DNA of 64,000 nt, taken from positions 64,001 to 128,000 of the forward strand of contig CAVVYR010000029.1 of NCBI GenBank assembly GCA_963752475.1, read 5' to 3'. A program made the translations under genes and the position numbers. The notes beneath the pieces were generated by a model. It made no database searches. It worked only from the letters and a program-made list of their open reading frames with translations, and was not told where the DNA came from. Origin of the DNA: an uncultured Chloroflexia bacterium (GTDB lineage Bacteria; Chloroflexota; Limnocylindria; Limnocylindrales; CSP1-4). Below are positions 23,504-48,288 of this stretch, piece by piece (the first letter of the stretch is position 1; each line of letters begins with the position of its first letter).

Positions 23504-24373
23504 GTGGCAGACCTGCCGTTCATCGACACGCACGTCCATTTCTACGACCTCGAGAACCCGAGACTGCGCTACGACCTGCTCAGGCCGGGTGCCAAACACG
23601 AGATCATCGAGGACATCCGCGCCATCAAGGCCTCCCGCTACTGGGCTGACGACTGGCTGGCCGAGACGCGTTTCGCCAATGTCGCCAAGTCGATCCACGT
23701 GCAGTGTGCCGGCGGGATCGTGGACCCGGTCGAGGAGACAAGGTGGATCCAGGCCTTCGCTGACCGACTGGGCCATCCGCATGGCATCGTGGCCGAGGTC
23801 CACCTTGCAGAGCCGGATGCTGAAGCGGTCATCGAACGCCACCTGGAGTTCGCCAATGTCCGCGGCGTCCGTGAGTACCGCGATGACGACTACCTCCTGG
23901 ATCCGGCTTGGCAGCGCGGCTTCTCATCCCTCGACAAGCACGGCCTCCTCAGCTGCGTGCACGCCAAGCCCGAGACCTACGCAGACGTCAAGGCGCTCGC
24001 GACCAAGCATTCCAACATGATCGTGTGCCTGGACCACGCCGGCTTTCCTCGCGGGCGCGACCCCGAGTACTTCGCGTTGTGGAGGCGGGAGATCCTGAAC
24101 CTCGCCGAAGCGCCCAATGTCATCGTCAAGGTCTCGGGCCTCGACATCTGCGACCCTCGCTGGACGATCGACTCGGTCCGCCCATGGGTCTCGACCTGCA
24201 TCGAAGCCTTTGGGCCCGCGCGCACGATCTTCGCCTCGAACTGGCCCTTCGGGCGTCTGTTCGCCTCTTACCCCGATGTGGTCGACACCTGGGCGGCGCT
24301 GATCAGCGAGTACTCCGATGGCGAGCAAGCGGCCATGTTCAGTGGCAACGCGGAGCGCTACTTCCGCATCTGA
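23504..24373 (+). CDS. Amidohydrolase-2 family, sugar-lactonase-like (L-fuconolactonase type)
   Basis: IDTHVHFYD, CLDHAG, NVIVKVSG, FGPARTIFASNWP, NAERYF; GGAGGAG RBS; TAGAAT -10 at 23461. Confidence 0.8.
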   Translation: MADLPFIDTHVHFYDLENPRLRYDLLRPGAKHEIIEDIRAIKASRYWADDWLAETRFANVAKSIHVQCAGGIVDPVEETRWIQAFADRLGHPHGIVAEVHLAEPDAEAVIERHLEFANVRGVREYRDDDYLLDPAWQRGFSSLDKHGLLSCVHAKPETYADVKALATKHSNMIVCLDHAGFPRGRDPEYFALWRREILNLAEAPNVIVKVSGLDICDPRWTIDSVRPWVSTCIEAFGPARTIFASNWPFGRLFASYPDVVDTWAALISEYSDGEQAAMFSGNAERYFRI

Positions 24374-24420
24374 CCACGGAAGGCTTGCCTGCACCAGCGC
24401 CCCGCGCTAGGCTGAACGAG

Positions 24421-24438
24421 GCGTGTATGCACACCTGC
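24421..24438. promoter_or_regulatory. Island operator site 1 (dhaKL)
   Basis: GCGTGTATGCACACCTGC just downstream of a TAGGCT -10 (24408). Confidence 0.55.
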
Positions 24439-24478
24439 ATGCGAGTCGGGCTCAGACAGGCAGATCGAGGAGTGAAAC

Positions 24479-25483
24479 ATGCAGCGCATCATCGATGACC
24501 CGACACTGGTCGTGGAGGACATGCTGCGCGGCTTCCTGCGCGCCCATCCCGGCCTCGTAGCCCCGACCGATGATCCGCGCGTCGTGCGCTACGTAGGCGC
24601 ACCGGTCGACGGCAAGGTCGGCATCGTCACCGGTGGTGGCTCCGGGCACAAGCCCGCCTTCATCGGCTATCTCGGGCGCAACATGGTCGATGCCGTGGCC
24701 GTCGGTGAGATCTTCAGCTCCCCTTCGGCATCGGCGTTCCTGAACGCCTTCAAGGCGGCTGACGCTGGCGCCGGGGTGGCCTGCCTCTACGGCAACTATG
24801 CGGGCGACAACATGAACGTCAAGCTGGCGCGCAGGAAGGCCGAGAAGGCGGGCATCCGCGTCGAGACCGTCATCGCCAACGATGACGTGCCCTCTGCGCC
24901 ACCCGACGAGCGTGAGAAGCGCCGTGGCGTCGCGGGCGAAGTCCTGCTGTGGAAGGTCGGCGGCGCCAAGGCCGCCCTCGGAGGAACGCTCGACGAGGTC
25001 ATCGCAGCGGCACAGAAGGCCATCGACAACACGCGCAGCATCGGCGTGGGCCTGACCCCCTGCACCATCCCGGCCCTGGGCAAGCCCAACTTCAGCATCG
25101 AGCCCGGGATGATGGAGGTCGGTATCGGCCACCACGGCGAACCGGGCGTCTCGGTCGAGTCGCTCAAACCCGCGAAGGACATCGCCCGCGGGATGATGGA
25201 CGTCATCCTGCCGGACCTGCCCTTCGAGCGCGGCGATGAGGTCACCATCCTGGTCTCCGGGCTCGGCGCCACGCCGGTGATGGAGCTGTACATCCTCTTC
25301 GACCACATCGCGGCCATGGCCGAGGAGGTCGGCTTGTCCATCCACCGGCCGTACGTCGGCAACTACTTCACCTCCCTCGAGATGATGGGTGCGACCGTCA
25401 CGCTCATGCGGCTCGACCAAGAACTCAAGACCTGCCTCGACCTCGAGGCTGACAGCGTCGGCCTACGCCAGTTCCCCGCATGA
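24479..25483 (+). CDS. dhaK: Dihydroxyacetone/erythrulose kinase, DhaK subunit
   Basis: GGGSGHKP, GNYAGD, RRGVAG, GIGHHGEPG, FTSLEM. Confidence 0.9.
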   Translation: MQRIIDDPTLVVEDMLRGFLRAHPGLVAPTDDPRVVRYVGAPVDGKVGIVTGGGSGHKPAFIGYLGRNMVDAVAVGEIFSSPSASAFLNAFKAADAGAGVACLYGNYAGDNMNVKLARRKAEKAGIRVETVIANDDVPSAPPDEREKRRGVAGEVLLWKVGGAKAALGGTLDEVIAAAQKAIDNTRSIGVGLTPCTIPALGKPNFSIEPGMMEVGIGHHGEPGVSVESLKPAKDIARGMMDVILPDLPFERGDEVTILVSGLGATPVMELYILFDHIAAMAEEVGLSIHRPYVGNYFTSLEMMGATVTLMRLDQELKTCLDLEADSVGLRQFPA

Positions 25484-26136
25484 CCAGCGAACGATCCTTC
25501 GCCAACCGCGATGGCCGGGTCATCATCGACGCGCTCATCGCCGCCATCGAGGACAACGCCGAGAGCCTCAGCCAGATCGACGGTGCCATCGGCGACGGTG
25601 ACCACGGCATCAACATGCGCAAGGGCTTCCTCATGGTCCGCGACGAGCTCGATGGCGAGATCGAGCTCTCGGCCGGCCTGACGCTCATCGGCGACACCCT
25701 CATGATCCGCATCGGCGGCGCGATGGGGCCGCTCTACGGCAGCTTCTTCAGCGAGATGGGGGATGCCTGTGAGGGCCTCGAGCGGATCGACGCGGCCAGC
25801 TTCGGCCGCATGCTCGATGCCGGACGCGAGGCAGTCGAGGACATCGGCGAGGCCCAGGTGGGCGACAAGACGCTGCTCGACACGCTCGTGCCTGCGATGG
25901 AGGCCTATCACGCGTCGATCGCCGCCGGCGACTCGTTCGCGGACGCGCTGGCGGCCTTGAGCAAGGCCGCTGAGAGCGGGAAGGACTCGACGCGGGACCT
26001 GGTCGCCAAGGTTGGCCGGGCTAGCCGCCTTGGCGAACGCTCAAGAGGGGTGCTGGACGCTGGGGCCACCTCCTGTTGGCTCCTGCTCGCCGCCATGGCC
26101 ACGTCGATGCGACAGCTGTTGACTGCGGCCGACTGA
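25480..26136 (+). CDS. dhaL: Dihydroxyacetone/erythrulose kinase, DhaL subunit
   Basis: GDGDHG, GGAMGPLYG, GDKTLLD, GRASRLGERS, DAGA; ATGA overlap with dhaK. Confidence 0.92.
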   Translation: MTSERSFANRDGRVIIDALIAAIEDNAESLSQIDGAIGDGDHGINMRKGFLMVRDELDGEIELSAGLTLIGDTLMIRIGGAMGPLYGSFFSEMGDACEGLERIDAASFGRMLDAGREAVEDIGEAQVGDKTLLDTLVPAMEAYHASIAAGDSFADALAALSKAAESGKDSTRDLVAKVGRASRLGERSRGVLDAGATSCWLLLAAMATSMRQLLTAAD

Positions 26137-26171: not shown

Positions 26172-27191
26172 TCAGGGGCGGATGACCGTCTTGACGATGT
26201 CGGCGTCACGGGCAGTGCGGTGGAAGGCCTCCACGGCCTCTTCGAGCCGGACGTCGAGCGTGAGGATGTTCGTCACCGGGACCGAGCCCTCCGCGATGAG
26301 TTCGATGGCACGCTCGACGGCAGCACGCGTGACGCCGACGCTGGCGTGGATGGTCAGATTGTTCCAGACGACTTTGAACTCGTCGATCTCCACGACACGA
26401 CCGACGTTGCCGAGCCAGACGATCTGGCCGCCGCCAGCGGTAGCATCCACCGCGCTCGCGACCGAGGCCGTGGTGCCCACCGCTTCGACCGTCAGGTCCA
26501 CACCGCGGCCATCGGTGGCGGCCGCCAGTCGGTCGGCAGCATCGGCGGCGGTCGGGTCGAGCACGTGCGTCGCACCCATCTCCTGCGCGATCTGGCGCCG
26601 CTTCTCGAGCGGCTCGAGGACGATGAGTCGGCGAGGCCGGTGCAACGCCAGGACGGCGGCGGCGATGAGCCCGATCGGTCCCCCGCCCACCACCGCGACG
26701 CTGTCGCCGGCATCGACCTTGGCGCGTGAGAGGCCCTTGACCACGACGGCCAGTGGTTCGATCAGGGCCGCTTGCTTGAAGCTGACCTCATCCGGGATGG
26801 GGATGGCCGTGCGCTCACGGATGCGAAAGAGCTCTGCGAACGCGCCCGGGAGGTCGCCTCCATACACCTTGCGATGGGGGCACAGGTCGAAGGCGCCGCG
26901 CCGACACTGGTCACAATCCGCGCACCACTCCATGGGCATGCTGAAGACACGATCTCCGGGCGAGACGGCCCGCACTCCAGTGCCAACGGCGACCACCTCG
27001 CCGCAGGCCTCATGGCCCATGACGAGCGGTGCGACCCGACGGCCATTCTTGCCGTCGTAGCCGTGCGTGTCCGATCCACACACGCTGGCGGCTCGGACGC
27101 GCACCAGCACATCGTCTTCTCGCTCGATGATGGGGTCGGGTTGATCGACGATCTCCAGCGTCGAAGGGGCGCTGAGCAGCATCGCTCTCAT
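26172..27191 (-). CDS. Zn-dependent polyol/sugar-acid dehydrogenase (MDR family)
   Basis: CGSD, GHE, CxxCxxCx7C, GGGPIG. Confidence 0.9.
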   Translation of the reverse strand: MRAMLLSAPSTLEIVDQPDPIIEREDDVLVRVRAASVCGSDTHGYDGKNGRRVAPLVMGHEACGEVVAVGTGVRAVSPGDRVFSMPMEWCADCDQCRRGAFDLCPHRKVYGGDLPGAFAELFRIRERTAIPIPDEVSFKQAALIEPLAVVVKGLSRAKVDAGDSVAVVGGGPIGLIAAAVLALHRPRRLIVLEPLEKRRQIAQEMGATHVLDPTAADAADRLAAATDGRGVDLTVEAVGTTASVASAVDATAGGGQIVWLGNVGRVVEIDEFKVVWNNLTIHASVGVTRAAVERAIELIAEGSVPVTNILTLDVRLEEAVEAFHRTARDADIVKTVIRP

Positions 27192-27239: not shown

Positions 27240-27989
27240 CTAGGCCCGAACGGCCTTCACTCGCTGCACGTACTCCCTGAGCATCGGTTCCGCCTCAGGC
27301 CCAAGCAGGTAGGGGTGGCCGATGAGGACGATGTCTGCGCCAGCCGCCACGGCCGCCTCGCCGCCAGCCGGATCGAAGGTAACCACCCCCACCGGGACGT
27401 CGACGGCCGCCTTGGTGCGGGTGAGCATATCGATCGTATCGTCAGCGTCCGGATCCTCCAAGCGCGCATCGCCACCGTAGTGGACGAGCACAACCTGGGC
27501 CCCCATGTCCACGACCTCGCGGGCTCTTGCCACCGGGTCTGGCGCAGCGTAAAGATCGACGACGACGGTGATACCGGTTTCCGCCTGACCCTCGAGCGCT
27601 TGGCGGATGCTGGCATCGTGGGCGACCCCGCAGATGGTCACGAAGTCGGCACCCATCGAGGCCGCCGAGACGACGTACTTCTTGGCACCATCGACGATCT
27701 TGACGTCGGCCAGGACCGGATCATCGGGGAACGCCTGCTTGAACGGCTCCATCACCGACAGTCCCTGGTAGAGCACCAGGGGCGTACCGAACTCCAGCAG
27801 GTCGACCCCGGCACGCTTGGCCATGTGCCCGATCTCGATAGCCTGATCGACCGTGGGGACGTCGATCGACACCTGCACGATGGGGGCCGGCGTGGCCATG
27901 AGCGCGTCGAGTGCGGCAGAACGGGCCAGGGTCCGGGCCGCTGCCGCGCTGGCGCCCGCCGGAGGTTTGGGTCGTGTCGGAGTCGTCAT
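27240..27989 (-). CDS. 3-hexulose-6-phosphate synthase/KGPDC-like protein (OMPDC superfamily)
   Basis: VQVSID, EFGTPL, LADVKIVD, VHYGGD (HxGxD as in HPS). Confidence 0.8.
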   Translation of the reverse strand: MTTPTRPKPPAGASAAAARTLARSAALDALMATPAPIVQVSIDVPTVDQAIEIGHMAKRAGVDLLEFGTPLVLYQGLSVMEPFKQAFPDDPVLADVKIVDGAKKYVVSAASMGADFVTICGVAHDASIRQALEGQAETGITVVVDLYAAPDPVARAREVVDMGAQVVLVHYGGDARLEDPDADDTIDMLTRTKAAVDVPVGVVTFDPAGGEAAVAAGADIVLIGHPYLLGPEAEPMLREYVQRVKAVRA

Positions 27990-28055: not shown

Positions 28056-28073
28056 GTGTGCATGCAAGCATAT
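28056..28073. promoter_or_regulatory. Island operator site 2 (divergent HPS-like / aldolase promoters)
   Basis: GTGTGCATGCAAGCATAT. Confidence 0.65.
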
Positions 28074-28128: not shown

Positions 28129-29172
28129 ATGAGCGAGACGTATTTCGAATGGCTACGCCACCAGACACCGAGCCGTGTCTGGATCAACAACCCCACCGCT
28201 GCGGAGATCGAGCTCTCGCTCGCGCAGGGCGCGGTCGCATGCACCACCAACCCCGCCTACGGGGGCAACCTGCTTGGCCGAGCCCCTGCCGAGATCCGAC
28301 CGGACATCGTGGAAGTCGCCGCTGGAGGAGCCAGAGGCGACGTGGCCGTGGCGCTCGTGCAGGAGCGTCTGATCGCTCGCATCCTGCCGCACTTCGCCGC
28401 CATCCATGAGCGCAGCGGTGGCCGCGAGGGCTGGGTCTCGATGCAGGGTGCGCCGGAGCTGGACACCTCGCTCGATCCCATCCTTGACGCTGCGCGCGCG
28501 GCCCGCTCGCTGGCGGACAACTGCATCCCCAAGATCCCCGCCACCGTGCCCGGCCTAGCCGCGCTCGATGTGCTGGTGCGGGAAGACGAGCCCGTGCTGA
28601 TGACGGAGGTCTTCAGCCTGGCCCAGGTCGTTCAGACCTGCGAGCGCTACCAGCGGGCCTCGGCGGAGAGCGGCAACGAGCCAGTCTTCATCATGGCGCC
28701 CATCACAGGCATCTTCGGCGATCACCTCAAGAAGGTCGCGGCTCGAGAAGGCACGACCATCGCGGCCGAGGCCGTGATGTGGGCGGGCGTCATCTGGGCT
28801 CGGGCTGCCAAGCGACTGGTCGACGAGCGCCACTACCCGGTGCAGCTGCTGTATGGGGGAGCCAGGAACACGGCCGACCTGACCGGGCTGGTGGGCGGGC
28901 CCCATGCGGCTACGGTCAACTGGTCGACCTACGTGGAGGTCCTTGAAGCGGATCCCGAGCGACGCCAGACCGTGAACGAGCCGGCGCCGGCGGACATCGA
29001 AGAGCAGCTGCTCGAGACGTTCGAGGACTTCCGCCTAGCGATGGATGAGCAGGGCTTGAGAGCCGACGAGTTCGAGGACTTCGGACCGGTGCAGCACTTC
29101 CGCGATGCATTCATCGCGGGCTGGGCGGCGGTTCGCGACGCCATCGACGAAGAGGTAGCCGCAGGAACCTGA
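28129..29172 (+). CDS. Divergent transaldolase-family (class I aldolase) protein
   Basis: CTTNP and Schiff-base KIPAT are present; many other active-site residues are substituted. AGGAG RBS. Confidence 0.8.
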   Translation: MSETYFEWLRHQTPSRVWINNPTAAEIELSLAQGAVACTTNPAYGGNLLGRAPAEIRPDIVEVAAGGARGDVAVALVQERLIARILPHFAAIHERSGGREGWVSMQGAPELDTSLDPILDAARAARSLADNCIPKIPATVPGLAALDVLVREDEPVLMTEVFSLAQVVQTCERYQRASAESGNEPVFIMAPITGIFGDHLKKVAAREGTTIAAEAVMWAGVIWARAAKRLVDERHYPVQLLYGGARNTADLTGLVGGPHAATVNWSTYVEVLEADPERRQTVNEPAPADIEEQLLETFEDFRLAMDEQGLRADEFEDFGPVQHFRDAFIAGWAAVRDAIDEEVAAGT

Positions 29173-29219: not shown

Positions 29220-30374
29220 CTAGCGGTAGACGCCGGCCTCTCGGAATGCCTCCACCATGGCCACGATGTTCTCGGGCGGTACATCCGCCTGGATGTTGTG
29301 GACCGTGGCGAAGATGTAGCCGCCGCCGGGCATAAGCGTCTCGACGTTCCGTAGCACCTGCTCGCGGACCTCGAGCGGCGTCCCGCGCGGCAGCACCTTC
29401 TGCGTGTCGACGCCGCCGCCCCAGAAGGCGATCTCGCGCCCGTACTCACGCTTGAGTTCCGGCAGGTCCATGCCTTCGGCTGTGAACTGCACCGGGTTGA
29501 GCCCGTCCACGCCGGCCTCGATGAGATCGGGGATGAGCGACTTGATGGCGCCATCCGAGTGCAGGAAGACCTTGGCCCGGCTGTTGGCATGGACGAAGGC
29601 GTACAGCTCCGAGATGCGCGGCTTGATCATCTTGCGCCACAGGTCCGGAGCGATGAGCGGAGCCATCTGGCTGCCGTAGTCGTCGGCATCGTAGATGACA
29701 TCGAGGATGTCCCCGATCTCCCCGAAGACGGTCTCCCAGAAGCGCAGCTTGATCTCAAGGGCCTGGTCGAGGATGGCACCGGCCAGCGCCTGGTCCTGGA
29801 CCAGGTCCATGAAGAAGCGCTCGAAACCCCGCATCCACAGCGAAACCTCCAGCGTCCCGGGGATGATGCCCTTGCAGGCAGAGGCTCGATGCTCTTCGAA
29901 GACGACGCGCTCGCAGTCAGCTCGGATGTTGCTGAAGCGATGTGGGTCGGTGGGGTCGGGCCAGGGATACGCGGCCACCTCTGCCGGAGTCGTCACATCC
30001 GCCAGTGGACTGTCGTAGAGATCGTAGTAGAGGCCACCGTCCTTGGGCTGGCGCCAACCCATCCCGTACTCGTCGGTGAGCTCACGGTACTCCCCTGCTT
30101 CCCTGACCTCCAGATGCCAGCTGGCCGGATCGGGCGGACCCGTGGCCACGATCCCCACGTCAGCGCCCAGCAGGTCCTGGACGTCACGGTCGGTCCAGGC
30201 CAGCCCAAGACGGATATCCGCGACGTTGACCTCCGGGGAGAGCCCCAAGTACTCGCGCAATCGGCGGTAGGCGATGTGGTGGCTGCTGGTGACGAACGTG
30301 CCCCCGAAGTCATAGGGCACACGGTCAGGCTCGCGGTGGTCGAGCGCGGCGAGGACGCGTTCGCGCGAGGTCAT
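29220..30374 (-). CDS. Uroporphyrinogen decarboxylase (URO-D)-fold protein 1
   Basis: MTSRERV..EPDRVP, DEYG, RGFERFFMDL, DDYG, HSDG, NPVQ, FWGGGVDTQ, GGYIFATVHNIQ. Confidence 0.88.
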   Translation of the reverse strand: MTSRERVLAALDHREPDRVPYDFGGTFVTSSHHIAYRRLREYLGLSPEVNVADIRLGLAWTDRDVQDLLGADVGIVATGPPDPASWHLEVREAGEYRELTDEYGMGWRQPKDGGLYYDLYDSPLADVTTPAEVAAYPWPDPTDPHRFSNIRADCERVVFEEHRASACKGIIPGTLEVSLWMRGFERFFMDLVQDQALAGAILDQALEIKLRFWETVFGEIGDILDVIYDADDYGSQMAPLIAPDLWRKMIKPRISELYAFVHANSRAKVFLHSDGAIKSLIPDLIEAGVDGLNPVQFTAEGMDLPELKREYGREIAFWGGGVDTQKVLPRGTPLEVREQVLRNVETLMPGGGYIFATVHNIQADVPPENIVAMVEAFREAGVYR

Positions 30375-30394
30375 GTCACCTCTGGAGGCGGCTG

Positions 30395-30412
30395 GTATGC
30401 GTGTATACACAC
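30395..30412. promoter_or_regulatory. Island operator site 3 (URO-D 1)
   Basis: Minus strand GTGTGTATACACGCATAC, just downstream of a TATACT -10 (30417-30422). Confidence 0.7.
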
Positions 30413-31664: not shown

Positions 31665-31675
31665 GGGGCCACCTC

Positions 31676-39750: not shown

Positions 39751-39807
39751 ACCCTCCCCCTGCCCGGCGGGCTTGCCCGGGTCTGCCACTGATCCGGCCG
39801 GCAACGA

Positions 39808-40917: not shown

Positions 40918-40942
40918 GAAACGCTCCCCTTCAGGTTGGTGG

Positions 40943-41635: not shown

Positions 41636-41671
41636 TGGCCGAAGACCAGCCGAGAGGTGGCCTCTTTGTTG

Positions 41672-41689
41672 GTGTGTATGCTCGCATCC
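41672..41689. promoter_or_regulatory. Island operator site 5 (divergent esterase / URO-D 2)
   Basis: GTGTGTATGCTCGCATCC next to a TACGAT -10 (41694). Confidence 0.7.
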
Positions 41690-41767
41690 TAGGTACGATA
41701 CACTGGTCCCACAAGGGTCGACTCAGCACCCGACAGGACATCCAGGGAGGGTGGAGCGATGGGGGCA

Positions 41768-42907
41768 ATGACCTCTCGGGAGCGAGCGCTCGCGGCGCTG
41801 AACCACAAGGAACCGGACCGGGTCCCCATCGACCTCGGCTCGCATGGAGCCAGCCTTATCCGCCACGAGCCGTACGATGGTGCGCGCGACCTGTGGGGCC
41901 TCCCGGAAGAGGATGACAAGGGCACCTTCACGGCCTCTGGCCTGATCGTCCCGGGCGAGCGCTTCCGCCAGCGGGTCGGCGCCGACTTCGTCGATATCGG
42001 CCTCGTCTCCCTCGAGGCTTGGGAGCGCAACGACGATGGATCGTTCCTCGACGAGTGGGGTGTGACCTGGATGCGCTCGGGAGACGGCGAGCCGGCGGCG
42101 TTGGCCGGTCCGCTGGAGCGCGACGACATCACGGCCAGGGACATCCTCGATTGGGATGGTTACCCCACCGCCGACGATCCACGACGCTATCCCGGCATGG
42201 CCGAGCGTGTGGCCAGGATCCGGGCGGAGACCGACTACGCCATCGTCTTCGACTTCCATTACGGCGTCGTGCGCGAATGCCAGCGCCTCCGTGGGTTCGC
42301 ACCGTGGCTGATGGACCTCATCGGCGATCCCGAGCGGGCCGAGGCCATCATGACCAAGGTCGTGGACACGATCTCTGCCATCGCCGAGAACGCACTCGAT
42401 GAAGTAGGCGACGAGATCGACGTCTTCTGGTTCGCGGACGACATGGGCTTCCAGGACCGGCCCTACATGAAGCCCGAGATGTATCGCGAGCTGGTCAAGC
42501 CCTACCACGCCCGCTTCATCGAGCGCGTTCGCGCCAAGACCGAGGCCGTCATCATGATGCACAACGACGGCGCGATCCACGAGATGCTGGGTGACTACAT
42601 CGACATTGGCGTGCAGGCGTTGAACCCGGTGCAGGTCTCCGCCGACGGCATGGGTGACACTGCTGCACTCAAGGCCGAGTTCGGAGACGACCTCGTCTTC
42701 TGGGGCGCCATCGACACGCAGCACGTCCTGCCCTTCGGGTCACCGCAAGAAGTGCGGGACGAGGTCAAGCGCCGCATCGAGACGCTCGGCCCTGGGGGCG
42801 GCTACGTCCTCGCTCCCGGTCACAACATCCAGTCGGAGGTGCCCCCGGAGAACGTCGTCGCCATGTTCGACGCGGCCCTCGAGCTGGGCGGCTACCCACG
42901 CTCCTAA
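41768..42907 (+). CDS. URO-D-fold protein 2
   Basis: MTSRERA..EPDRVP, DEWG, DDMG, HNDG, NPVQ, FWGAIDTQ, GGGYVLAPGHNIQ. Confidence 0.88.
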   Translation: MTSRERALAALNHKEPDRVPIDLGSHGASLIRHEPYDGARDLWGLPEEDDKGTFTASGLIVPGERFRQRVGADFVDIGLVSLEAWERNDDGSFLDEWGVTWMRSGDGEPAALAGPLERDDITARDILDWDGYPTADDPRRYPGMAERVARIRAETDYAIVFDFHYGVVRECQRLRGFAPWLMDLIGDPERAEAIMTKVVDTISAIAENALDEVGDEIDVFWFADDMGFQDRPYMKPEMYRELVKPYHARFIERVRAKTEAVIMMHNDGAIHEMLGDYIDIGVQALNPVQVSADGMGDTAALKAEFGDDLVFWGAIDTQHVLPFGSPQEVRDEVKRRIETLGPGGGYVLAPGHNIQSEVPPENVVAMFDAALELGGYPRS

Positions 42908-42979
42908 GGTCCGAGACATGGCCATCGCGTGCCCGGCGGCCGGTGCCGGCGAAGTCCGTGCTGGGCGGTAGTGGAACTG

Positions 42980-42997
42980 GTCTGTATATTGGCATCA
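42980..42997. promoter_or_regulatory. Island operator site 6 (weak; P450 2)
   Basis: GTCTGTATATTGGCATCA, a degenerate match. Confidence 0.4.
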
Positions 42998-43035
42998 ACA
43001 CTGCGGCGTCCGGGCGCGACGGCCGCTGACGACCT

Positions 43036-44307
43036 ATGGCGAAGCCAGGCGAGGCGAGAAGGATGGCCGAGCAGCCGAATGACACGCTGCTGACACACCC
43101 GAGCTTCAGCGCGAACCCCTTTCCAGCCTATCGAGAGCTGCGTGAGCGTGCCCCTGTGTACCGGAGCGCCGCCTGGGACGCCTGGGTCATGACCGGGTAC
43201 GACGACATCGTCTCGGCACTACGCGACCACGAGCGGTTCTCGAGCCGCGGGCGCCTGGTCGAGATGATCGACGCCTTGCCGGAGGAAGCGCAGGGGCAAG
43301 CAGGACCGCTGCGGAACCACTTCTCGACATCGGGACTGATCCACTCGGATCCCCCCGACCACACCCGAATGCGTGGGCTCATCAAGCAGGCCTTCTCACC
43401 ACGCGTGATAGCGACCATCGAGCCGCGCATCGAGCGCATCATCGAGCGCTTGCTGGACCGGGTCGACGCGGCCCAGGGCTTCGACGTCGTCGAGCGCCTG
43501 GCCTATCCGCTCCCGGCTATCGTCATCGCCGAGCTGCTGGGCGCGCTGCCCGAGGATCGAGACCGCTTCAAGGGCTGGTCCGACGGCATCGTCGCGTTCC
43601 AAGGACAGGGTCGAGCGATCGCGGACGCCGTGCCCATGTCAGCCGAGGCCATCACTGAGATGCGGGCCTATATCGGCGAACTGATGGCCGCGCGTCGCCG
43701 GGACCACCACGACGATCTGCTCGCCGGCCTCGTCGATGTGGAACAGGCCGGCGTCGAACTCAGCGAGGACGAGATCTACTCCACGTGCGTGACGTTCCTC
43801 ATCGGCGGCCACGAGACCACCACCAGCCTTATCGCCAACTGTCTGTATACCCTGCTTCGGCGCCCCGAACAGCTCGAGCAGGCACGGACGGATCCGGTTG
43901 CCCTCGCCGGCGCCCTCGAGGAGAGCCTGCGCTTCGACAGTCCGATCCAACGGACGTTCCGCCGTGTCACACGGGACACGGAGGTCGGGGGACAGGAACT
44001 GCGTGAAGGTCAGATCGTCATCCAACTGCTGGGTGCCGCCAACCGCGACCCAGCTCACTTCGCCGATCCCGAGACGTTCGACCTCGCGCGCAAGCCGAAC
44101 CGCCATATCGCGTTCGGTAGTGGCGTTCATTTCTGTATCGGTGCCCCGCTGGCACGACTGGAGGCCCGGCTTGCGCTGCGTGCCATCCTCGAACGGTGGC
44201 CCGATCTGGAGCTAGCCGTCGAAGAGATCGAGTGGCAGAGCGAGAAGGCGCTGTTCCGATGCGTCCGCAGCCTGCCGGTCAGGTCCCGCAGGGAGAGCGG
44301 CCTTTGA
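43036..44307 (+). CDS. Cytochrome P450 (paralog 2)
   Basis: DPPDHTRMR, GGHETT, EESLR, AANRDP, HIAFGSGVHFCIG. Alternative start at 43063. Confidence 0.96.
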   Translation: MAKPGEARRMAEQPNDTLLTHPSFSANPFPAYRELRERAPVYRSAAWDAWVMTGYDDIVSALRDHERFSSRGRLVEMIDALPEEAQGQAGPLRNHFSTSGLIHSDPPDHTRMRGLIKQAFSPRVIATIEPRIERIIERLLDRVDAAQGFDVVERLAYPLPAIVIAELLGALPEDRDRFKGWSDGIVAFQGQGRAIADAVPMSAEAITEMRAYIGELMAARRRDHHDDLLAGLVDVEQAGVELSEDEIYSTCVTFLIGGHETTTSLIANCLYTLLRRPEQLEQARTDPVALAGALEESLRFDSPIQRTFRRVTRDTEVGGQELREGQIVIQLLGAANRDPAHFADPETFDLARKPNRHIAFGSGVHFCIGAPLARLEARLALRAILERWPDLELAVEEIEWQSEKALFRCVRSLPVRSRRESGL

Positions 44308-47300
44308 GGTCACGCATCCGCAGGTCGATCGCCTTCGCGCTCGTGCTGTCGCTGGCCACAGGGGGCGCTGTCGTCTCAGCTGACGCCGACGAGGCCACGG
44401 AGGCCGGCCTGGACGTTCCGACCTTCGTCGACGAGACCCTGGCCTCAGGGATCGACCACGTGAACAGCTACGTGGCCACGCCAGAGAGCCCTGACGGGGG
44501 CTGGGAGTTCATCGTCGGCGGCGGCCTGGCCGTCCTCGACTGCGACCGTGACGACCTGCCCGACCTGTACCTTGCCGGCGGCAGCAGCCCGGCGAGCCTC
44601 TATCGCAACGTGAGCGACCTGGGCGGGCCACTCAAGTTCAAGCGTCTGAACTCCGACGAGACGGACCTCATCCATGTCACCGGCGCCTATCCCGTCGACA
44701 TCGACAGCGACGATCTGCTCGACCTGGTCGTGCTCCGCCGCGGCCCCAACGCGGTGCTCCGCGGGCTGGGCGACTGCCGTTTCGAGCCGGCTAACTCGCG
44801 GCTCGGTGTGGATGGCGGCGACGACTGGACGACCGCTTTCAGTGCCAAGTGGGAAGGCGAAGCTGCTTTGCCGACGTTGGCATTCGGCAACTACCAAGCG
44901 CTCGATGCGGCCGGTGAGTTGGTCCCGGGCACGTGCGCCGATCAACAGCTCTACCGCCCGCGACCCGGCGCCGTGCGCTACGGGCCACCGGTCCCGCTGT
45001 CACCCGGCTGGTGCACGCTTTCGATGCTCTTCAGCGACTGGGACCGGTCGGGGCGTCGCGACTTGCGCGTGAGCAACGACCGTCAGTACTACGTCTCAGC
45101 GGGCGAGGAGCAACTGTGGCAGATGGACGACGAACCCCGGCTGTACACCGACGCCGACGGCTGGGAGCGAACCCTGATCTTCGGCATGGGCATCGCCAGC
45201 GCCGACATCACTCGCGACGGCTACCCCGAGGTCTTCCTGACCACGATGAGCCACAACAAGCTGCTGACCCTGTCTGACGGGCCTGAGCGGCCAAGCTACG
45301 ACGACGTGGCTCGAGAGCTGGGTGCATCCACGGGCCGCCCGGTCACCGGCGACGACACGCGACCGTCGACGGCGTGGCACCCCGAGTTCGCAGATGTCAA
45401 CAACGACGGACGCCTCGATCTCTACGTCTCGAAGGGCAACCTCGATGCGCTACCTGACCAGGCCAACCACGACCCCAGCAGCTTGATGCTGCAGCGAACT
45501 GACGGGACCTTCGTGGAGATGGCACCTGCCGCCGGCCTCGCCAATGACGCCCGCGCGCGCGGCGCCGCCCTGGTGGACCTCAACCTCGACGGCCTGCTCG
45601 ACCTCGTCGAGGTCAACCTGGGCGATGAGGCAGAGGTCTGGCGCAACGCCGGCGTCGGGACCGCCACCGAGCCTGCACCGATGGGGCACTGGCTGGCCGT
45701 CGAGTTGCACGAGGACGGGCCGAACGCCGACGCGATCGGCGCCTGGATCGAGATCAAAGCCGAAGGCGGGATCCAGCGGCGCGAGGTCACCGTGGGCGGC
45801 GGCCACATCTCGGGCCAGCTGGGCCCGACCCACTTCGGCCTGGGCCCGGCCGAGCAGGCCGAGGTGCGCGTGACCTGGCCCGACGGCGAGGTCGGACCAT
45901 GGACCCCGGTCAGCGCCGACCAGCGCATCCGCATCGAGCGTGGCGGGATGAGCCCGGTGGCCCTGACGGTCGCGACCGAGATGACCGGTGCGCTACCCCT
46001 GGTGCGCGAGAGCGAAGCCGGGCCCGAGCTGCCGCCGGTCCCGTCGGTGGACCCGTCCACCTGCGTGCCGAGCGCTGACCGCGAGCACTCGGTCGCCCGC
46101 CTCTGGGACGAGGCCCTGCTCGACGCCATCCGCCGTGACTTCCCGGCCCCCACCGTGCACGCGCGCAACCTCTACCACGCGTCGGCCGCGATGTGGGATG
46201 CCTGGGCCGCCTACGACTCGACCGCCGATGGTGTCTTCTATCGGCGGCAAGGCCACCGCCGACGACGTCGCGGCCGCGCGCGACGAGGCCGTCAGCTACG
46301 CCGCCTACCGCGTCCTGTCGCACCGCTACCGCGACAGCGCCGGAGGTGCGCAGTCCCTGCGCCGGTTCGACCAGCTCATGGCCGAGCTCTGCTACCCGTG
46401 GGAGATCGAGGCCGCCGACGATGCGACCCCGGCCACGCTGGGCAACCGCATCGCGGCCACGGTCATCGAGGCCACCATGGACGACGGCGCGCTGGAGCAG
46501 CAGGGCTACACCACGCGCGACTACGTCGCGGTGAACGAGCCGATGATCGTGCAGGAGCCGGGCACGGTCATGACCGACCCCAACCGCTGGCAGCCGCTGG
46601 CGCTCGAGATCAGCTACACCCAGAACGGCCAGCTGCTGCCGATCGGGCCGCAGGAGTTCATCGGGCCGCACTGGGGCGAGGTCACCTCCTTCGCCCTGCC
46701 CGAGCCGCTCGAGCACGGCATGCCCATCGACCCCGGCGGCCCGCCCCATCTCGGTGACCCCGCCACCGATGCCGAGTTCAAGGCCAAGGCCGTGGAGGTC
46801 GTCGCGTACAGCGCGCTGCTGGACCCGCGCGACGGCGTGACCGTCGACATCGGCCCGGCCACCTGGGGCAACGCGCCGCTGGGGACGAACGATCGGGCCG
46901 GCCACGCGTTCAACCCCTGGACCAGCCTGCCGTATGCGCCGGTCGAGGTACCGCGCGCGGACTTCGGGCGCGTGCTGGCCGAGTTCTGGGCCGACGGTCC
47001 CGACTCGGAGACCCCGCCGGGCCACTGGAACACGCTCGCCAACAGCGTCGTCGACCACCCCGCGTTCGAACGCCGCATCGCCGGCCGCGGCCCCGTGCTC
47101 GACCCGCTCGAATGGGATGTGAAGCTGTACCTCGCGCTCAACGGCGCGGTGCACGATGCGGCCGTGGCCGCCTGGGGCGCCAAGGGCCACTACGACTACG
47201 TGCGGCCGATCAGCATGATCCGCTACATGGGCGGCCTCGGCCAGTCGAGCGACCCGGGGCTGCCCGCGTACCACCCCGACGGGCTGCCGCTCATCGAGGG

Positions 47301-47826
47301 CCAGGTCGAGCTCATCACCGCGGCCTCGGCCGCCGCCGGCGAGCGCCACGAGCACCTCGATGACTTCGTCGGGGAGATCGCGGTGCGGGCCTGGAGCGGG
47401 AACCCCCGCGAGACCGAGTCGGAGCTCGGCGGGGTCGACTGGATCCGGGCGGTCGAGTGGGTGCCCTACCAGCTCTCGACCTTCGTGACGCCCAGCTTCG
47501 CAGGCTACGTCAGCGGCCACTCCACCTTCAGCCGAGCGGCCGCGGAGGTGCTCACCGAGATGACCGGCTCGGCGTACTTCCCCGGTGGGCTCGGCACCTG
47601 GACGGTGCCGGCGGGTTCGCTCGAGTTCGAGCTCGGGCCCAGCGTCGACGTGCCGCTGGCTTGGGCCACGTACTACGACGCGGCCGATCAGGCCGGGCTC
47701 TCACGGCTCTACGGCGGCATCCACGTCGAGGCCGACGACCTGCGCGGTCGGGTCATGGGCGCGCAGTGCGGCCGGGACGCGTGGGCCCTGGCGCAGACCT
47801 ACTGGGACGGGACGGCGCGCGGCTAG
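44304..47826 (+). CDS. Secreted CRTAC1/FG-GAP-ASPIC/UnbV + vanadium-dependent haloperoxidase-like fusion (+1 frameshift near 46242)
   Basis: TTG start overlaps the P450 stop; signal peptide; repeated DxDxDGxxDL motifs; NADAIGA..HFGLG (ASPIC/UnbV); then SVARLWDEALLDAIR, KGHYDYVRP, GYVSGHS, SRLYGGIH (VHPO/PAP2 active-site motifs). Confidence 0.8.
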
Positions 47827-47832
47827 CCGGGG

Positions 47833-48288
47833 CTAGCGTCCAGCGCGCTCACGATCGTCGAGCTGCTTGATCTTCGCGACCTTGCGCTCGGACCGCCCGC
47901 CTGCGAAATCCCCGGAGATCCAGTGGTCGACCAGAAGCGGCGCCACGTTCCGTCCCACCACAAGACTGCCGAGACACAGCACGCGCGCATCGTTCGACTT
48001 GATGGCGCGCTCTGCGGAGTATGGGTCGGTGACGGGCGCCGCGCGGACGCCGTGAACCTTGTTTGCGACGATGGCCATCCCGAGCCCAGTGCCACAACAC
48101 AACACAGCCCGTTCGACCTCGCCTGTGGCGACAGCGCGAGCGACGGGCTCAGCAACATCCGGGTAGTCCTCGTCTTGTCCCGGCTGCAGCCCGTAGTCGA
48201 TGACCTCGTGTCCCTGCTCGGCGAGATGATCACGTACGAGGTCCTTGAGTTCGACGGCGTTGGCGTCGGCACCTACGGCGATGCGCAT
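47833..48288 (-). CDS. RpiB/LacA/LacB sugar-phosphate isomerase, DerI-like
   Basis: DYPDVA, CGTGLG, ANKVHGVRAA, YSAERAIKSNDA; lacks the His of the usual DHAG motif. Confidence 0.85.
   Translation of the reverse strand: MRIAVGADANAVELKDLVRDHLAEQGHEVIDYGLQPGQDEDYPDVAEPVARAVATGEVERAVLCCGTGLGMAIVANKVHGVRAAPVTDPYSAERAIKSNDARVLCLGSLVVGRNVAPLLVDHWISGDFAGGRSERKVAKIKQLDDRERAGR

Follow-up and report, generated by a model that had tools for sequence, protein, structure and literature searches.

The locus occupies 23.4-48.3 kb of the window (the whole 64,000-nucleotide stretch of DNA that was analyzed) in the 4.25-Mb genome of an uncultured Chloroflexota bacterium. Pfam and NCBIfam searches recovered every gene listed in the original prediction, each at or near its predicted position. 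Just upstream of the island lie a GH1 beta-glucosidase and a LacI regulator. The island opens with a sugar-lactonase-like Amidohydro_2 protein (23405-24373, forward strand; PF04909, 119.8 bits), whose top NCBIfam match is L-fucono-1,5-lactonase (93.5 bits; cutoff, 400) and whose sole solved relative is 4dlf/4dnm. It is followed on the same strand by dhaK (24479-25483; Dak1, 363 bits) and dhaL (25480-26136; Dak2, 173.6 bits), which overlap by 4 nucleotides and encode a two-subunit dihydroxyacetone/ketose kinase; no second copy was found in the genome. ZnADH1, a Zn-dependent polyol/secondary-alcohol dehydrogenase (26172-27191, reverse; ADH_N and ADH_zinc_N), matches IolM best in NCBIfam (240 bits; cutoff, 450) and has xylitol, threonine, and sorbitol dehydrogenases as solved relatives. 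Next to it is a 3-hexulose-6-phosphate-synthase-like (HPS-like) protein of the OMPdecase/HUMPS family (27240-27989, reverse), and then a divergent member of the transaldolase/FSA family, TAL_FSA-like (28129-29172, forward; PF00923, 57.6 bits), which had no match in the NCBIfam search, matches solved transaldolases weakly, and has two paralogues elsewhere in the genome at 51-52% identity.

The central part of the island is encoded on the reverse strand. It comprises URO-D-like protein 1 of the UroD/MtaA superfamily (29220-30410; PF01208, 76.5 bits), a regulator of AraR-type architecture in which a GntR winged helix is combined with a sugar-binding domain of LacI type (30468-31664; GntR and Peripla_BP_3/1), a Hyi/OtnI-family isomerase (AP_endonuc_2; 31676-32470, longest ORF to 32533), cytochrome P450-1 (32463-33776, likely start at 33701; PF00067), an SDR that is a candidate aldose 1-dehydrogenase (33757-34569; adh_short_C2, 153.6 bits), and a CUT2-type monosaccharide ABC importer (34665-39355; Peripla_BP_4, two BPD_transp_2, and a double ABC_tran) made up of a substrate-binding protein (SBP; 34665-35627), two permeases (35746-36759 and 36756-37745), and an ATPase (37742 to ~39250). 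In NCBIfam, the isomerase scores 239.6 bits as OH-pyruvate isomerase and 211.9 bits as 2-oxo-tetronate isomerase, each below the cutoff, and its solved relatives are 3ngf and 1k77 (YgbM); for the SDR, the sole hits are models of generic SDRs and of glucose/aldose dehydrogenases, none reaching its cutoff. The closest named models for the importer are ribose, allose, arabinose, and xylose systems, again all below cutoff, and the SBP shows just 25-30%-type similarity to ribose, allose, and galactofuranose binders. P450-1 had been described as overlapping both of its neighbors. The overlap with the isomerase was found (8 nucleotides with the likeliest isomerase start, 71 with the longest ORF), while that with the SDR amounts to 20 nucleotides with the longest ORF only and gives way to a 55-nucleotide gap when the start of a 94%-identical homologue is used.

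Beyond the importer lie a RhaM-family mutarotase-like protein (39436-39750, forward; PF05336, 60.1 bits), the class-III-like Zn-dependent alcohol dehydrogenase ZnADH2 (39808-40917, reverse), which scores 250-264 bits with NDMA-, mycothiol-, and glutathione-dependent ADH models, below their respective NCBIfam cutoffs, and a GDSL/SGNH esterase (40943-41635, reverse; Lipase_GDSL_2, 80.6 bits). URO-D-like protein 2 (41759-42907, forward; PF01208, 101.7 bits) and cytochrome P450-2 (43036-44307, forward; PF00067, 126.3 bits, with an invariant heme-binding motif) follow, and the island closes with an RpiB/LacAB-family sugar-phosphate isomerase (47833-48288, reverse; PF02502, 162.8 bits) that exceeds the cutoff of the RpiB subfamily model (159.4 bits; cutoff, 135) and falls below that of DerI (135.8 bits; cutoff, 240). 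Between these two lies an FG-GAP/ASPIC-UnbV protein followed by a DUF6851/VCPO-like domain (44196-47826, forward; Pfam). The predicted haloperoxidase fusion is absent from the window as such, where the two parts are ORFs in different frames, yet they share a single frame in a related genome (L272) and in a paralogue on contig C4. The coding signal (GC3) changes frame around position 46243, a 1-nucleotide frame change, and one contig of the public run X1 lacks one base at 46242. FG-GAP/ASPIC genes also adjoin P450s in loci L010 and L218.

A 16-bp operator, ATGCGTGTATRCACAC, is found in six promoter regions of the island with 11-16 of 16 matching positions, four strong and two weak, bearing out the shared operator first proposed; four other intergenic regions of the island reach just 8-9 of 16. 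The strong sites lie upstream of dhaK (AGGCGTGTATGCACAC; 24419-24434, forward, 1 mismatch), between the divergent HPS-like and TAL-like genes (28056-28071, reverse, 2 mismatches), upstream of the URO-D-like 1 gene (ATGCGTGTATACACAC; 30397-30412, forward, 0 mismatches), and between the divergent GDSL and URO-D-like 2 genes (41672-41687, reverse, 2 mismatches). The weak sites are located between the ABC operon and the RhaM-like gene (39306-39321, forward, 11/16, with a TGTATGCA core) and upstream of P450-2 (42980-42995, reverse, 12/16). No operator was seen upstream of the RpiB-like gene. Genome-wide, only the four strong sites match with up to 2 mismatches, where 0.6 would be expected; four were reached in 1 of 100 shuffles, the pattern having been derived from these same sites.

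Strong sites also occupy orthologous intergenic positions in four related loci, L001, L190, L191, and L246. In L001, the sites upstream of dhaK, between the HPS-like and TAL-like genes, and between the GDSL and URO-D-like 2 genes are kept at 19337, 15670, and 1938, respectively; the second is also kept in L191 at 5602, and the site between the regulator and URO-D genes is kept in L001, L190, and L191. The operator and its conservation support co-regulation, and the island would form one regulon under its own AraR-type repressor. The island itself, as had been anticipated, recurs in these four loci. Whole gene order is kept in L001 (37-79% protein identity), the core Perm-SBP-SDR-P450-Hyi-AraR-UROD1-TAL in L190 and L191, and P450-Hyi-AraR-HPS in L246, with the regulator 76-83% identical in all four. 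It is nevertheless rare: in a sample of 150 other genomes of the family, no P450 exceeds 48% identity to P450-1.

The two P450s are 48% identical to each other, and the heme-binding Cys and AGHETT motif of P450-1 are invariant. They do not belong to CYP236A, the family cited in the original prediction: the best-ranking solved relatives are PksS, CYP107/109, and BioI, which is also the name given to several homologues in one source, and the best 60 of 290 entries include none from CYP236A. In contrast, the proposed tie of the P450s and URO-D-like proteins to sugar uptake is a real one, as their pairing is repeated inside sugar loci. Each of the four P450s in this genome has a URO-D-like gene 0.1 to 8 kb away within a sugar cluster, and a URO-D gene is adjacent in 6 of 29 loci of the P450 family and in L198, L208, and L229. 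Among 16 dereplicated loci of the P450 clade, contexts of sugar uptake, sugar catabolism, or glycoside hydrolases number nine (neighbors include three GH59, GH97 and RhaT, two GH2, a fucosidase, and RhaM), four are ambiguous, and three are unrelated (secondary metabolite or housekeeping). Unrelated contexts of P450 homologues, which the original prediction had named as counting against it, thus do not dominate this family-level annotation; they prevail only for distant P450s of at most 46% identity, where 78 of 80 species-level loci share no island-specific gene.

The three unrelated contexts, the GH1 and LacI genes upstream, and the preference of the closest solved P450s for hydrophobic substrates could suggest a mosaic, in which an ordinary polyol/pentose/aldonate cluster sits beside unrelated P450 and URO-D genes whose substrate, for instance an aglycone or a small aromatic methyl ether, is no sugar and is imported separately. 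The published ADHs likewise favor hydrophobic or aromatic substrates, and the known UroD-type O-demethylases act on phenolic ethers, according to the parts of the reports available (PMC10033563, PMC10418091). However, P450-1 is part of the transporter operon, with the SDR on one side and the isomerase, which overlaps it, on the other; one operator is common to the sugar and the P450/URO-D genes, and unrelated lineages again show such genes paired with sugar transporters and glycoside hydrolases. We therefore consider a mosaic very unlikely.

The URO-D-like proteins, to which the original prediction gave no role, are a large uncharacterized branch of the UroD/MtaA methyltransferase superfamily. 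Their MtaA/CmuA scores of 49-67 bits lie far below the cutoffs of 235-400 (URO-D-like 1, 48.8 bits against 235). URO-D-like 2 (AF2 model, pLDDT 92.6) has MtaA (4ay7) as its best solved fold, with a TM score of 0.67-0.75 at 21% identity. In an alignment with a classical MtaA-like paralogue, its H-x-C-G corresponds to an H-x-[D/C]-G motif (HSDG in URO-D-like 1, HNDG in URO-D-like 2) and its Cys to a later His. The URO-D-like proteins lack the Cys/Cys zinc ligands. P450-linked members fall in at least six places on a quick URO-D tree. Genes for corrinoid proteins are adjacent to members in G235 (which the tree places as sister of UROD2), G077, and G079. About 3 of 30 URO-D-like loci have such a neighbor; most have none. 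By hand count, at least three PF02607 matches occur in 20 of 29 genomes with the URO-D-like family versus 34 of 272 without it. The window carries no gene for a ferredoxin, a reductase, or a corrinoid protein. The genome encodes six small corrinoid proteins and a Pterin_bind-MTHFR/FolD/FTHFS module, and its ferredoxin and ferredoxin reductase genes for the P450s lie solely next to a P450 paralogue on contig C32. Because the superfamily holds known O-demethylases, among them the corrinoid enzymes OdmB and VdmB in the available part of the report (PMC10418091), this placement strengthens the O-methyl reading.

The predicted formaldehyde link is also supported. No HPS homologue other than the HPS-like gene was found in the genome, and the product of this gene is closer to solved HPS (9lj9, 104.6 bits) than to KGPDC (~40 bits), although it scores 118.7 bits with RuMP_HxlA against a cutoff of 200; a PHI-like gene on contig C26 reaches 140.7 bits against 160. 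ZnADH2 is not closer to ZoADH (8H2B, 192 bits) than to class III ADH (193 bits), with FoADH (8H2A) at 186 bits. Alternatively, the P450s may not demethylate at all and may instead act on a deoxy or otherwise reduced sugar by hydroxylating one of its C-H bonds, such as at the C6 methyl of a 6-deoxyhexose, or carry out an oxidative vicinal-diol cleavage like that of BioI, the HPS-like enzyme then interconverting hexulose and pentose phosphates rather than capturing formaldehyde. This would suit the BioI relatives and the deoxyhexose markers that abound in P450-clade contexts, namely RhaM (window and L003), RhaT (L198, L010, and L011), fucosidase and fuconate-type enzymes (L006 and L020), and the fuconolactonase-like Amidohydro_2 protein. 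Yet, to our knowledge, ordinary rhamnose and fucose pathways work without an oxygenase, and a shared methyl-ether substrate is the simpler account of the pairing of P450s with a methyltransferase superfamily. The known demethylation cluster, as far as the available part of the report describes it (PMC10033563), is also a better fit for the accompanying esterase and ADH and for an HPS homologue present once in the genome, making non-demethylating P450s improbable.

The predicted passage through a lactone to a C3/C4 ketose, and from there into pentose phosphate metabolism, agrees with published 2-oxo/3-oxo-aldonate pathways, in which an aldonate becomes a 2-oxo acid, is isomerized to a 3-oxo acid, and is decarboxylated to D-erythrulose or DHA for a kinase; in the parts of these reports available, the decarboxylation is ascribed to an unidentified enzyme or occurs spontaneously (PMC13753588, PMC12994016). 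Nothing specific favors a branched sugar such as apiose. Since neither a dehydratase nor an aldolase gene is present, the proposed route beyond the aldonate is drawn by analogy. The founder of the UroD superfamily is a decarboxylase that needs no cofactor. This precedent, and a His/Asp/His metal site that would suit beta-keto-acid decarboxylation, could point to URO-D-like proteins that remove CO2 from a 3-oxo-aldonate to give a ketose for DhaK/L, the P450s serving in separate preprocessing. Such enzymes would supply the missing decarboxylase of the D-ribonate route, whose clusters contain no decarboxylase gene in the portions of the reports available (PMC13753588, PMC12994016), and a module of Zn-ADH, SDR, AP_endonuc_2 isomerase, URO-D-like protein, and DhaK/L occurs both in the island and in another family (L111 and L112). 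On the other hand, most URO-D-like loci have neither the isomerase nor DhaK/L and look like a transporter plus one enzyme (L122, L121, L130, and L113), corrinoid proteins adjoin some members, and MtaA, not HemE, is the closest fold. Furthermore, 3-oxo acids partly decarboxylate spontaneously, as the same partial sources state (PMC13753588, PMC12994016). We regard a decarboxylase role as unlikely.

Collectively, the observations in the original prediction hold for gene content and operator, while its interpretation is partly supported and can now be put more sharply. From the gene families, the conserved operator, the recurrence of the island, and the pairing of P450-clade and URO-D-like genes in sugar loci, all read at the level of sequence, we infer, with about an even chance of being right, that the island serves catabolism of an O-methylated monosaccharide through two demethylation systems. 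The substrate would be a modified monosaccharide, most likely O-methylated and possibly of a deoxyhexose or pentose kind, taken up by the CUT2 system, its anomers equilibrated by the RhaM-like protein. The two class-I P450s would hydroxylate the methyl group of methyl ethers, releasing formaldehyde. The two URO-D-like proteins may be methyltransferases of the UroD/MtaA type that use a His/Asp(Cys)/His metal site and transfer methyl groups first to a corrinoid protein, whose gene lies elsewhere in the genome, and then to tetrahydrofolate. Formaldehyde would be captured by the HPS-like enzyme and perhaps also by the class-III-like ADH with the GDSL esterase. The freed aldose would be oxidized to a lactone by the SDR and opened to an aldonate by the Amidohydro_2 lactonase; a dehydrogenase would then yield a 2-oxo acid and the Hyi/OtnI-like isomerase a 3-oxo acid, whose decarboxylation would leave a ketose one carbon shorter, which DhaK/L would phosphorylate; entry into the pentose phosphate pathway would then be through the RpiB-like and TAL-like enzymes.

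By joining the uptake and degradation of a sugar to two kinds of enzyme known chiefly as demethylases, the island points to an undescribed route for methylated sugars. Compared with the 6-O-methyl-galactose clusters, whose ADHs have no formaldehyde activity in the available part of the report (PMC10033563), the island and locus L002, where a P450-GDSL-ZnADH2-like string is likewise found, mirror the published trio of CYP, esterase, and Zn-ADH.

The island, at about 23.4 to 48.3 kb of the window, is best understood as a regulon serving the use of a methylated sugar, and it carries two protein families from known demethylase superfamilies; each step proposed for the pathway is assigned at the level of the protein family. 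In Pfam and NCBIfam profile searches, every gene that the original prediction had listed for the island was found where it had been placed, with gene starts adjusted to 28129 (TAL-like), 27989 (HPS-like) and 32470 (isomerase). The host genome is a 4.25-Mb assembly of 38 contigs (88.8% complete, 5.8% contaminated), and the window, positions 64001-128000 of its contig C29, has a G+C content of ~67%. The closest homologues of the island P450s are named after Candidatus Limnocylindrales and Chloroflexota MAGs, and a Chloroflexia MAG supplies the best related genome locus. The upstream flank holds trehalose synthase, malic enzyme, a CUT1 ABC system, GH57, an FGGY kinase, LacI, GH1, LacI and a MalK-type ATPase, of which the GH1 beta-glucosidase, a LacI regulator and the MalK-type ATPase (19506-23342) lie directly upstream of the island, while a sulfotransferase, DUF4032, HAD and other genes lie downstream; since these flanks are unrelated, the borders of the island are reasonable as drawn. 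The MalK-type gene has no operator site, and it also adjoins the island in the related genome locus L001 (70% identity). Outside the island, a second RhaM-family gene (59465-59776, minus strand), which shares 38% identity with the island copy, is surrounded by unrelated genes.

The shared operator that had been proposed for the island was recovered as a 16-mer, which six promoter regions match at 11 to 16 of 16 positions (strong sites at 24419, 28056, 30397 and 41672; weak sites at 39306 and 42980), and four other island intergenic regions at only 8 or 9. Its core, (C/G)TGTAT(A/G)(C/T), occurs eight times in the 64 kb, five of them in island promoter regions, and extends to ATGCGTGTATRCACAC, half of an imperfect palindrome. 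When up to three mismatches were allowed, the window contained four matches versus 0.6 expected, a count reached in 1 of 100 shuffles and partly circular, because the pattern was derived from these same sites. The genome-wide uniqueness and orthologous recurrence of the 16-mer are free of this circularity: with up to two mismatches, the whole genome contains these four sites only (15 sites with up to three), and the 16-mer is present at orthologous intergenic positions in L001 (four places) and in the metagenome contigs L190, L191 (two places) and L246, where the proteins are only 53 to 83% identical. The binder is likely the island's own regulator, in which Pfam searches found a GntR winged helix (PF00392) joined to a LacI-type sugar-binding domain (PF13377/PF00532), the architecture of the AraR-type subfamily, in which a GntR domain is combined with a LacI/GalR-type sugar-binding domain. 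In the scan of island intergenic regions, no operator site was found upstream of the Amidohydro_2 gene or RpiB, and these two are placed in the regulon only by conserved synteny.

The recurrence of the gene set, on which the original prediction depended, was seen as the whole order in L001 and as partial strings in L190, L191 and L246, and was rare otherwise. Among 80 species-level genome loci collected with the P450 profile, L001 alone shares the island; it keeps the complete gene order from P450-2 through the MalK-type gene, with many frame breaks of the kind typical of long-read assembly. L190 and L191 (P450 79 to 81% identical) retain the string Perm-SBP-SDR-P450-Hyi-AraR-UROD1-TAL, and L246 retains P450-Hyi-AraR-HPS. 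The genome locus L002 has a P450-GDSL-ZnADH2-like string followed by an AP_endonuc_2 gene, beside a CUT2 importer. A sample of 150 other genomes of the same family, which takes in five of the same genus and one flagged as unpublished (G369, adding to denominators only), contained 51 genomes with a P450 match and none above 48% identity to P450-1. The island is rare. Contigs from two public sequencing runs of other studies (X3 and X7; salt marsh and sediment metagenomes) contained pieces 88 to 95% alike to window 38300-48290, covering parts of the ATPase, ZnADH2, GDSL, URO-D-like 2 and P450-2 genes, and relatives of this stretch therefore occur beyond the best-matching sample.

P450-1 (32463-33776, minus strand) and P450-2 (43036-44307, plus strand) are paralogues, 48% identical, with intact heme-binding and oxygen-activation motifs. 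As candidate class I heme-thiolate monooxygenases, both match PF00067 and possess the P450 fold, the heme-binding Cys of FxxGxHxCxG and the acid-alcohol pair of the I helix. Alignments of 12 and 37 sequences showed little or no variation in the heme Cys and the G-H-E-T-T motif. A CYP family is defined by at least 40% identity to its members. The nearest solved structures are PksS, CYP107/109-type enzymes, CYP125 and BioI; no CYP236A was present among the best 60 of 290 solved-structure matches, so that the island P450s are not members of that family. No ferredoxin or reductase gene was found in the window. One Fer4_15 ferredoxin gene and one reductase gene lie beside a paralogous P450 on contig C32 of the same genome, and no others of this kind were found in the assembly.

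The sugar context of this P450 clade was assessed in a census of 16 loci, with P450s 39 to 52% identical to P450-1 and at least 4.5 kb on each side, dereplicated by clustering at 70% identity. Nine of the 16 are clear sugar-uptake, sugar-catabolism or glycoside-hydrolase contexts, four are ambiguous (L201, L218, L007 and L013) and three are unrelated (L238, L019 and L245). Besides L002, the sugar loci include the metagenome contig L192 (6895-11206), in which an AraR-type regulator and a CUT1 importer precede three tandem clade P450s that are followed by Amidohydro_1, Zn-ADH, a DUF1537-type (OtnK-like) kinase and a ZnADH2-like gene. RhaT, GH97 and three GH59 genes surround P450-UROD in L198; L003 has a P450 followed by RhaM, with an RraA aldolase and a CUT2 importer; L195 has a CUT2 importer, two AP_endonuc_2 genes and Zn-ADH; and L006 has an SDR, an enolase-type dehydratase, an RraA aldolase and an alpha-L-fucosidase. 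RhaT adjoins the P450 in L010 and L011, and L020 carries a KDPG aldolase, an FAH hydrolase and an SDR. A 17th locus outside the census set, L229, reads UROD-ZnADH-FGGY-P450-DHDPS-DHDPS-UROD-GH2-GH2-LacI. When loci were scored more crudely, by whether they contain island genes, 78 of the 80 genome loci had nothing specific in common with the island, so the census result depends on gene families rather than orthologues. These contexts suggest that a second P450 clade, unrelated to CYP236A, may serve sugar demethylation in Chloroflexota and other soil and freshwater bacteria.

The partners of these P450s, URO-D-like 1 (29220-30410, minus strand) and URO-D-like 2 (41759-42907, plus strand), had no hemE match at an E value of <1e-10 in NCBIfam, and in the genome search an island URO-D-like gene reached 33.2 bits on the hemE model (cut-off, 302.95). 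These scores below the cut-off rule out HemE, and a role in supplying heme for the P450s was dropped on the same ground. In the genome itself, no hemE above the curated cut-off was found despite four P450s (best match, 83 bits versus 303); the gene may be unassembled, the genome being 88.8% complete, or heme may be made by another route. Scores against the NCBIfam subfamilies of the MtaA/CmuA type were likewise below all cut-offs (48.8 and 62.7 bits versus 235.4; 67.4 versus 244). The AF2 model of URO-D-like 2 (pLDDT, 92.6; pTM, 0.92) has a UroD-type TIM barrel, and its best solved match is the corrinoid:CoM methyltransferase MtaA (4ay7; E value, 2e-14; 21% identity; TM, 0.67/0.75). An H-x-C...C site was not found in 37 family members, which possess no conserved Cys column and whose invariant residues are His, Asp, Asn and Gln. 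The metal site was aligned with that of a classical MtaA-like paralogue from the same genome, which scores 203.7 bits on PF01208 and lies beside a corrinoid protein gene. The H-x-D-G of the family (H-S-C-G in two of eight members) aligns with the paralogue's H-M-C-G, and a conserved His (seven of eight members) aligns with its later Cys; these positions are presumably the zinc ligands in MtaA. From this alignment, the metal site looks retained with harder ligands (Asp/His), which would favour oxygen over thiolate as a ligand.

The URO-D-like family is large, with ~2,800 clusters at 50% identity and an E value of ≤1e-30, and 10,169 representative clusters at 1e-10. It is present in 29 of 301 sampled genomes of the phylum, often in several copies, nine of them in the host genome. 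Matches in the ESM Atlas were to unnamed Chloroflexota clusters only, and the literature searched contained nothing relevant that links URO-D with sugar clusters or with P450. The contexts of the family are overwhelmingly sugar loci, often with a transporter and the URO-D-like enzyme alone, as in GntR-SBP-perm-perm-UROD (L122), UROD-MFS (L121) and SBP-perm-ATPase-perm-UROD-FGGY (L130). Other companions are Zn-ADH, SDR, DhaK/L, FGGY kinases and DHDPS- or KDPG-type aldolases. This large branch of the UroD/MtaA superfamily may take part in sugar catabolism.

All four P450s of the host genome, two of them in the island, lie beside URO-D-like genes in sugar clusters. The cluster on contig C27 reads SBP-perm-perm-PBP-SDR-P450-UROD-KDPG aldolase-ZnADH2-like-PfkB kinase, and that on C32 reads SBP-AKR-split transketolase-SDR-SDR-ferredoxin-ferredoxin reductase-P450-AKR...Amidohydro_2-ABC-SBP-UROD. 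Of 29 other P450 loci within the family, 6 have a URO-D-like gene directly beside the P450, one example being SBP-ATPase-perm-perm-P450-UROD (L113), and the pairing is also seen on the metagenome contigs L198, L208 and L229. When 50 URO-D-like proteins were placed in a quick maximum-likelihood tree, those linked to a P450 occupied at least six positions (shuffled mean, 13.1; none of 500 shuffles as low), where rows labelled as having no P450 include loci with 1.5-kb flanks only and may miss some links. The pairing is therefore not a single inherited arrangement but has arisen, or been retained, on several occasions.

The UroD superfamily has corrinoid-dependent O-, S- and halogen-demethylases among its members, including OdmB and VdmB, which are O-demethylases of the phenolic type (PMC10418091). 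No corrinoid gene was found in the window; the host genome encodes six small corrinoid proteins, all outside it. One corrinoid gene belongs to a module that also encodes a Pterin_bind-MTHFR fusion, FolD and formate-THF ligase and that occurs twice (starts of contigs C19 and C27). Another is flanked by two UroD-superfamily genes, ~10 kb upstream of the P450-UROD cluster on C27, and a third is part of a sugar-acid cluster. The two contig starts (C19:1-13000 and C27:1-13000) carry what is seemingly the same gene string, consisting of 2-oxoacid dehydrogenase E2, a fused E1, DeoR, a 526-aa protein, the corrinoid protein, formate-THF ligase, FolD and the Pterin_bind-MTHFR fusion, with identical ORF lengths offset by ~122 nt and equal B12-domain scores; the repeat may be genuine, or it may be a duplicate created by assembly or binning. 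Corrinoid genes directly adjoin URO-D-like family members in three genomes: as TctC-UROD-CP in G235, whose URO-D is the tree sister of URO-D-like 2, as UROD-CP-UROD-CP in G077, and on contig C31 of G079. At least three B12-binding_2 matches were present in 20 of the 29 genomes with the family versus 34 of the 272 without it (a hand count over related genomes that are not independent; the 272 include three flagged as unpublished, G227, G173 and G272). The lack of a corrinoid gene in the window and the adjacency of one in only ~3 of 30 family loci count against a corrinoid reading. We regard it as possible, though doubtful, that the URO-D-like proteins are a large family of His/Asp/His metal-dependent methyltransferases that cleave O-methyl sugar ethers, use corrinoid proteins encoded elsewhere as methyl acceptors on the way to tetrahydrofolate, and, in bacteria of soil and freshwater, work alongside a P450 clade specific to sugars.

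For the oxygen-dependent side, the known precedent is the oxidative demethylation of 6-O-methyl-D-galactose in marine Flavobacteriia, whose cluster encodes CYP236A with ferredoxin, reductase, esterase and Zn-ADH (PMC10033563, PMC6292453, PMC9400963), and this was the only methylated-sugar demethylation route found in the literature searched. According to PMC10033563, deletion of the ADH cripples growth on 6-O-methyl-galactose, and the ADHs are described as having no formaldehyde-related activity. In the island, GDSL (40943-41635, minus strand) and ZnADH2 (39808-40917, minus strand) form a pair divergent from UROD2-P450-2, and ZnADH2 scores 192 bits with solved ZoADH and 186 bits with FoADH, about the same as with class III ADH. 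This pair with P450-2, like the L002 and C27 strings, mirrors the published CYP/esterase/ADH trio. The HPS-like gene (27240-27989, minus strand), the only HPS homologue found in the genome, has its operator in common with the TAL-like gene. It scores 118.7 bits on RuMP_HxlA (cut-off, 200) and 104.6 and 75 bits with solved HPS versus ~40 bits with KGPDC; a PHI-like gene on contig C26 scores 140.7 bits against a cut-off of 160.

The haloperoxidase fusion noted earlier was seen in one frame in relatives, and the window copy is split by a frame switch at ~46243. The FG-GAP and VCPO parts share one frame in L272 (the syntenic copy in the L001 genome) and in a paralogue on contig C4, and one contig of the best-matching public run, possibly the source sample, has one base absent at 46242; thus the fused form exists, and the split in the window copy represents a variant or else an error of assembly. 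The C4 paralogue (C4:158761-162336) and the window copy (44500-47830) are 64% identical in the FG-GAP part and 99 to 100% identical in the VCPO part at the protein level, and 88% identical over 3382 nt of DNA with 88 gap openings, a pattern for which gene conversion, mixed strains in the bin or noise in the assembly could account. FG-GAP/ASPIC genes adjoin clade P450s in L010 and L218 as well.

Downstream of demethylation, the SDR, the fuconolactonase-like Amidohydro_2 protein and the RhaM-like protein fit a conversion of aldose to lactone to aldonate. The middle steps would be carried out by a polyol-type Zn-ADH and then the Hyi/OtnI-family isomerase (31676-32470, minus strand), and the final steps by DhaK/L, the genome's only copy, and an extra RpiB paralogue. 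The isomerase is placed in its family by a Pfam match and the solved relatives 1k77 and 3ngf, with scores below the equivalog cut-offs (239.6 versus 353; 211.9 versus 325). In published routes, an aldonate is converted to a 2-oxo acid and by an isomerase to a 3-oxo acid, which yields D-erythrulose or dihydroxyacetone by decarboxylation (by an unidentified enzyme, or spontaneously), and a kinase and then an RpiB-type isomerase lead to erythrose-4-phosphate; such routes serve D-ribonate (Rib2D, OrnI, DerK), tetronates (OtnI, OtnK, OtnC) and tetritols (DerI) (PMC13753588 and PMC12994016, citing Luo & Huang 2018 and Huang 2015). Taken as a set, the enzymes of the upstream, middle and final steps in the island match this 2-oxo/3-oxo aldonate logic. 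An alternative, which we consider improbable, is that the URO-D-like proteins fill the missing decarboxylase step of the aldonate route. It stays open because the D-ribonate clusters, according to PMC13753588 and PMC12994016, are without a decarboxylase gene, and it is supported by the Zn-ADH/SDR/AP_endonuc_2/UROD/DhaKL modules of L111 and L112; MtaA, for its part, ranks ahead of true decarboxylases and MetE when the URO-D-like 2 model is compared with solved folds. A Thermotoga-type inositol route (IolM/IolN/IolO) was rejected, as the Amidohydro_2 protein matches the fuconolactonase model only and IolM and IolO are far below cut-offs. D-Apiose pathways were also rejected, with no ApnO, RLP or apulose kinase signature and with the split transketolase on C32, outside the island.

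Within 1.5 kb of TAL-like homologues at 24 other loci, no island genes were found. Two TAL-like paralogues of the host genome (51 to 52% identical) lie in near-identical contexts at C6:353000-372999 and C16:4000-14548, with a metallo-beta-lactamase-fold protein, 2-oxoacid dehydrogenase E1 alpha/beta, an FCD-type GntR, SDR and TAL-like, to which the C16 string adds Zn-ADH. This suggests that the divergent TAL-like aldolase family serves a distinct function in sugar or polyol clusters.

Taken together, the observation behind the original prediction is confirmed, and its interpretation is partly supported and has grown more specific. Read in this way, the island adds a variant of P450-assisted methoxy-sugar use and, possibly, an enzyme function not described before for a large branch of the UroD superfamily. 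Glycans of plants, algae, mosses and bacteria commonly contain methylated sugars, which block ordinary sugar pathways. If either the P450 clade or the URO-D-like branch has the suggested role, thousands of annotations as 'uroporphyrinogen decarboxylase family' would gain a function, unassigned steps of oxidative aldonate pathways would gain candidate enzymes, and glycan turnover would be tied to C1 metabolism via formaldehyde and methyl-THF. If the corrinoid-dependent methyltransferase reading is true, methylated sugars would be a widespread substrate class with two dedicated demethylation systems, one oxygen-needing and one not, and corrinoid-dependent O-demethylation would reach past aromatic ethers and anaerobes.

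Compared with known systems, the island resembles AraR-type regulons in the domain architecture of its regulator and in its palindrome-like operators before sugar catabolic and transport operons. It shares with the 2-oxo/3-oxo aldonate routes a dehydrogenase, a Hyi/OtnI-family isomerase, a DhaK-type kinase for the decarboxylated ketose and an RpiB-type isomerase; unlike them, it has no DUF1537 kinase or class II aldolase-type decarboxylase, its matches are all below equivalog cut-offs, and it adds aldose uptake, a lactonase, P450s and URO-D-like proteins ahead. As in the CYP236A cluster, the P450s are embedded in carbohydrate-utilization genes with esterase and Zn-dependent ADH companions, ZnADH2 matches ZoADH/FoADH, and there is a putative link to ribulose-monophosphate formaldehyde fixation. 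In contrast to that cluster, the best relatives of the island P450s are CYP107/109-like, the phylum is different, uptake is by an ABC transporter (SBP, 34665-35627, minus strand) rather than SusC/D, no redox partners lie in the island, and URO-D-like partners, none of which are reported for that cluster, are present. The URO-D-like family is like the corrinoid methyltransferases of the UroD superfamily in that its nearest TIM-barrel fold is MtaA, metal-site positions are kept, some members lie beside corrinoid proteins, and the host genome has corrinoid proteins and a methyl-THF module. It differs from the MtaA/CmuA/OdmB type in having Asp (Cys in two of eight) and His (seven of eight) for the Cys ligands, in scoring far below cut-offs, in that a corrinoid protein is not encoded next to most members (both window proteins among these), and in a context of sugar catabolism rather than aromatic ethers or methanogenesis.
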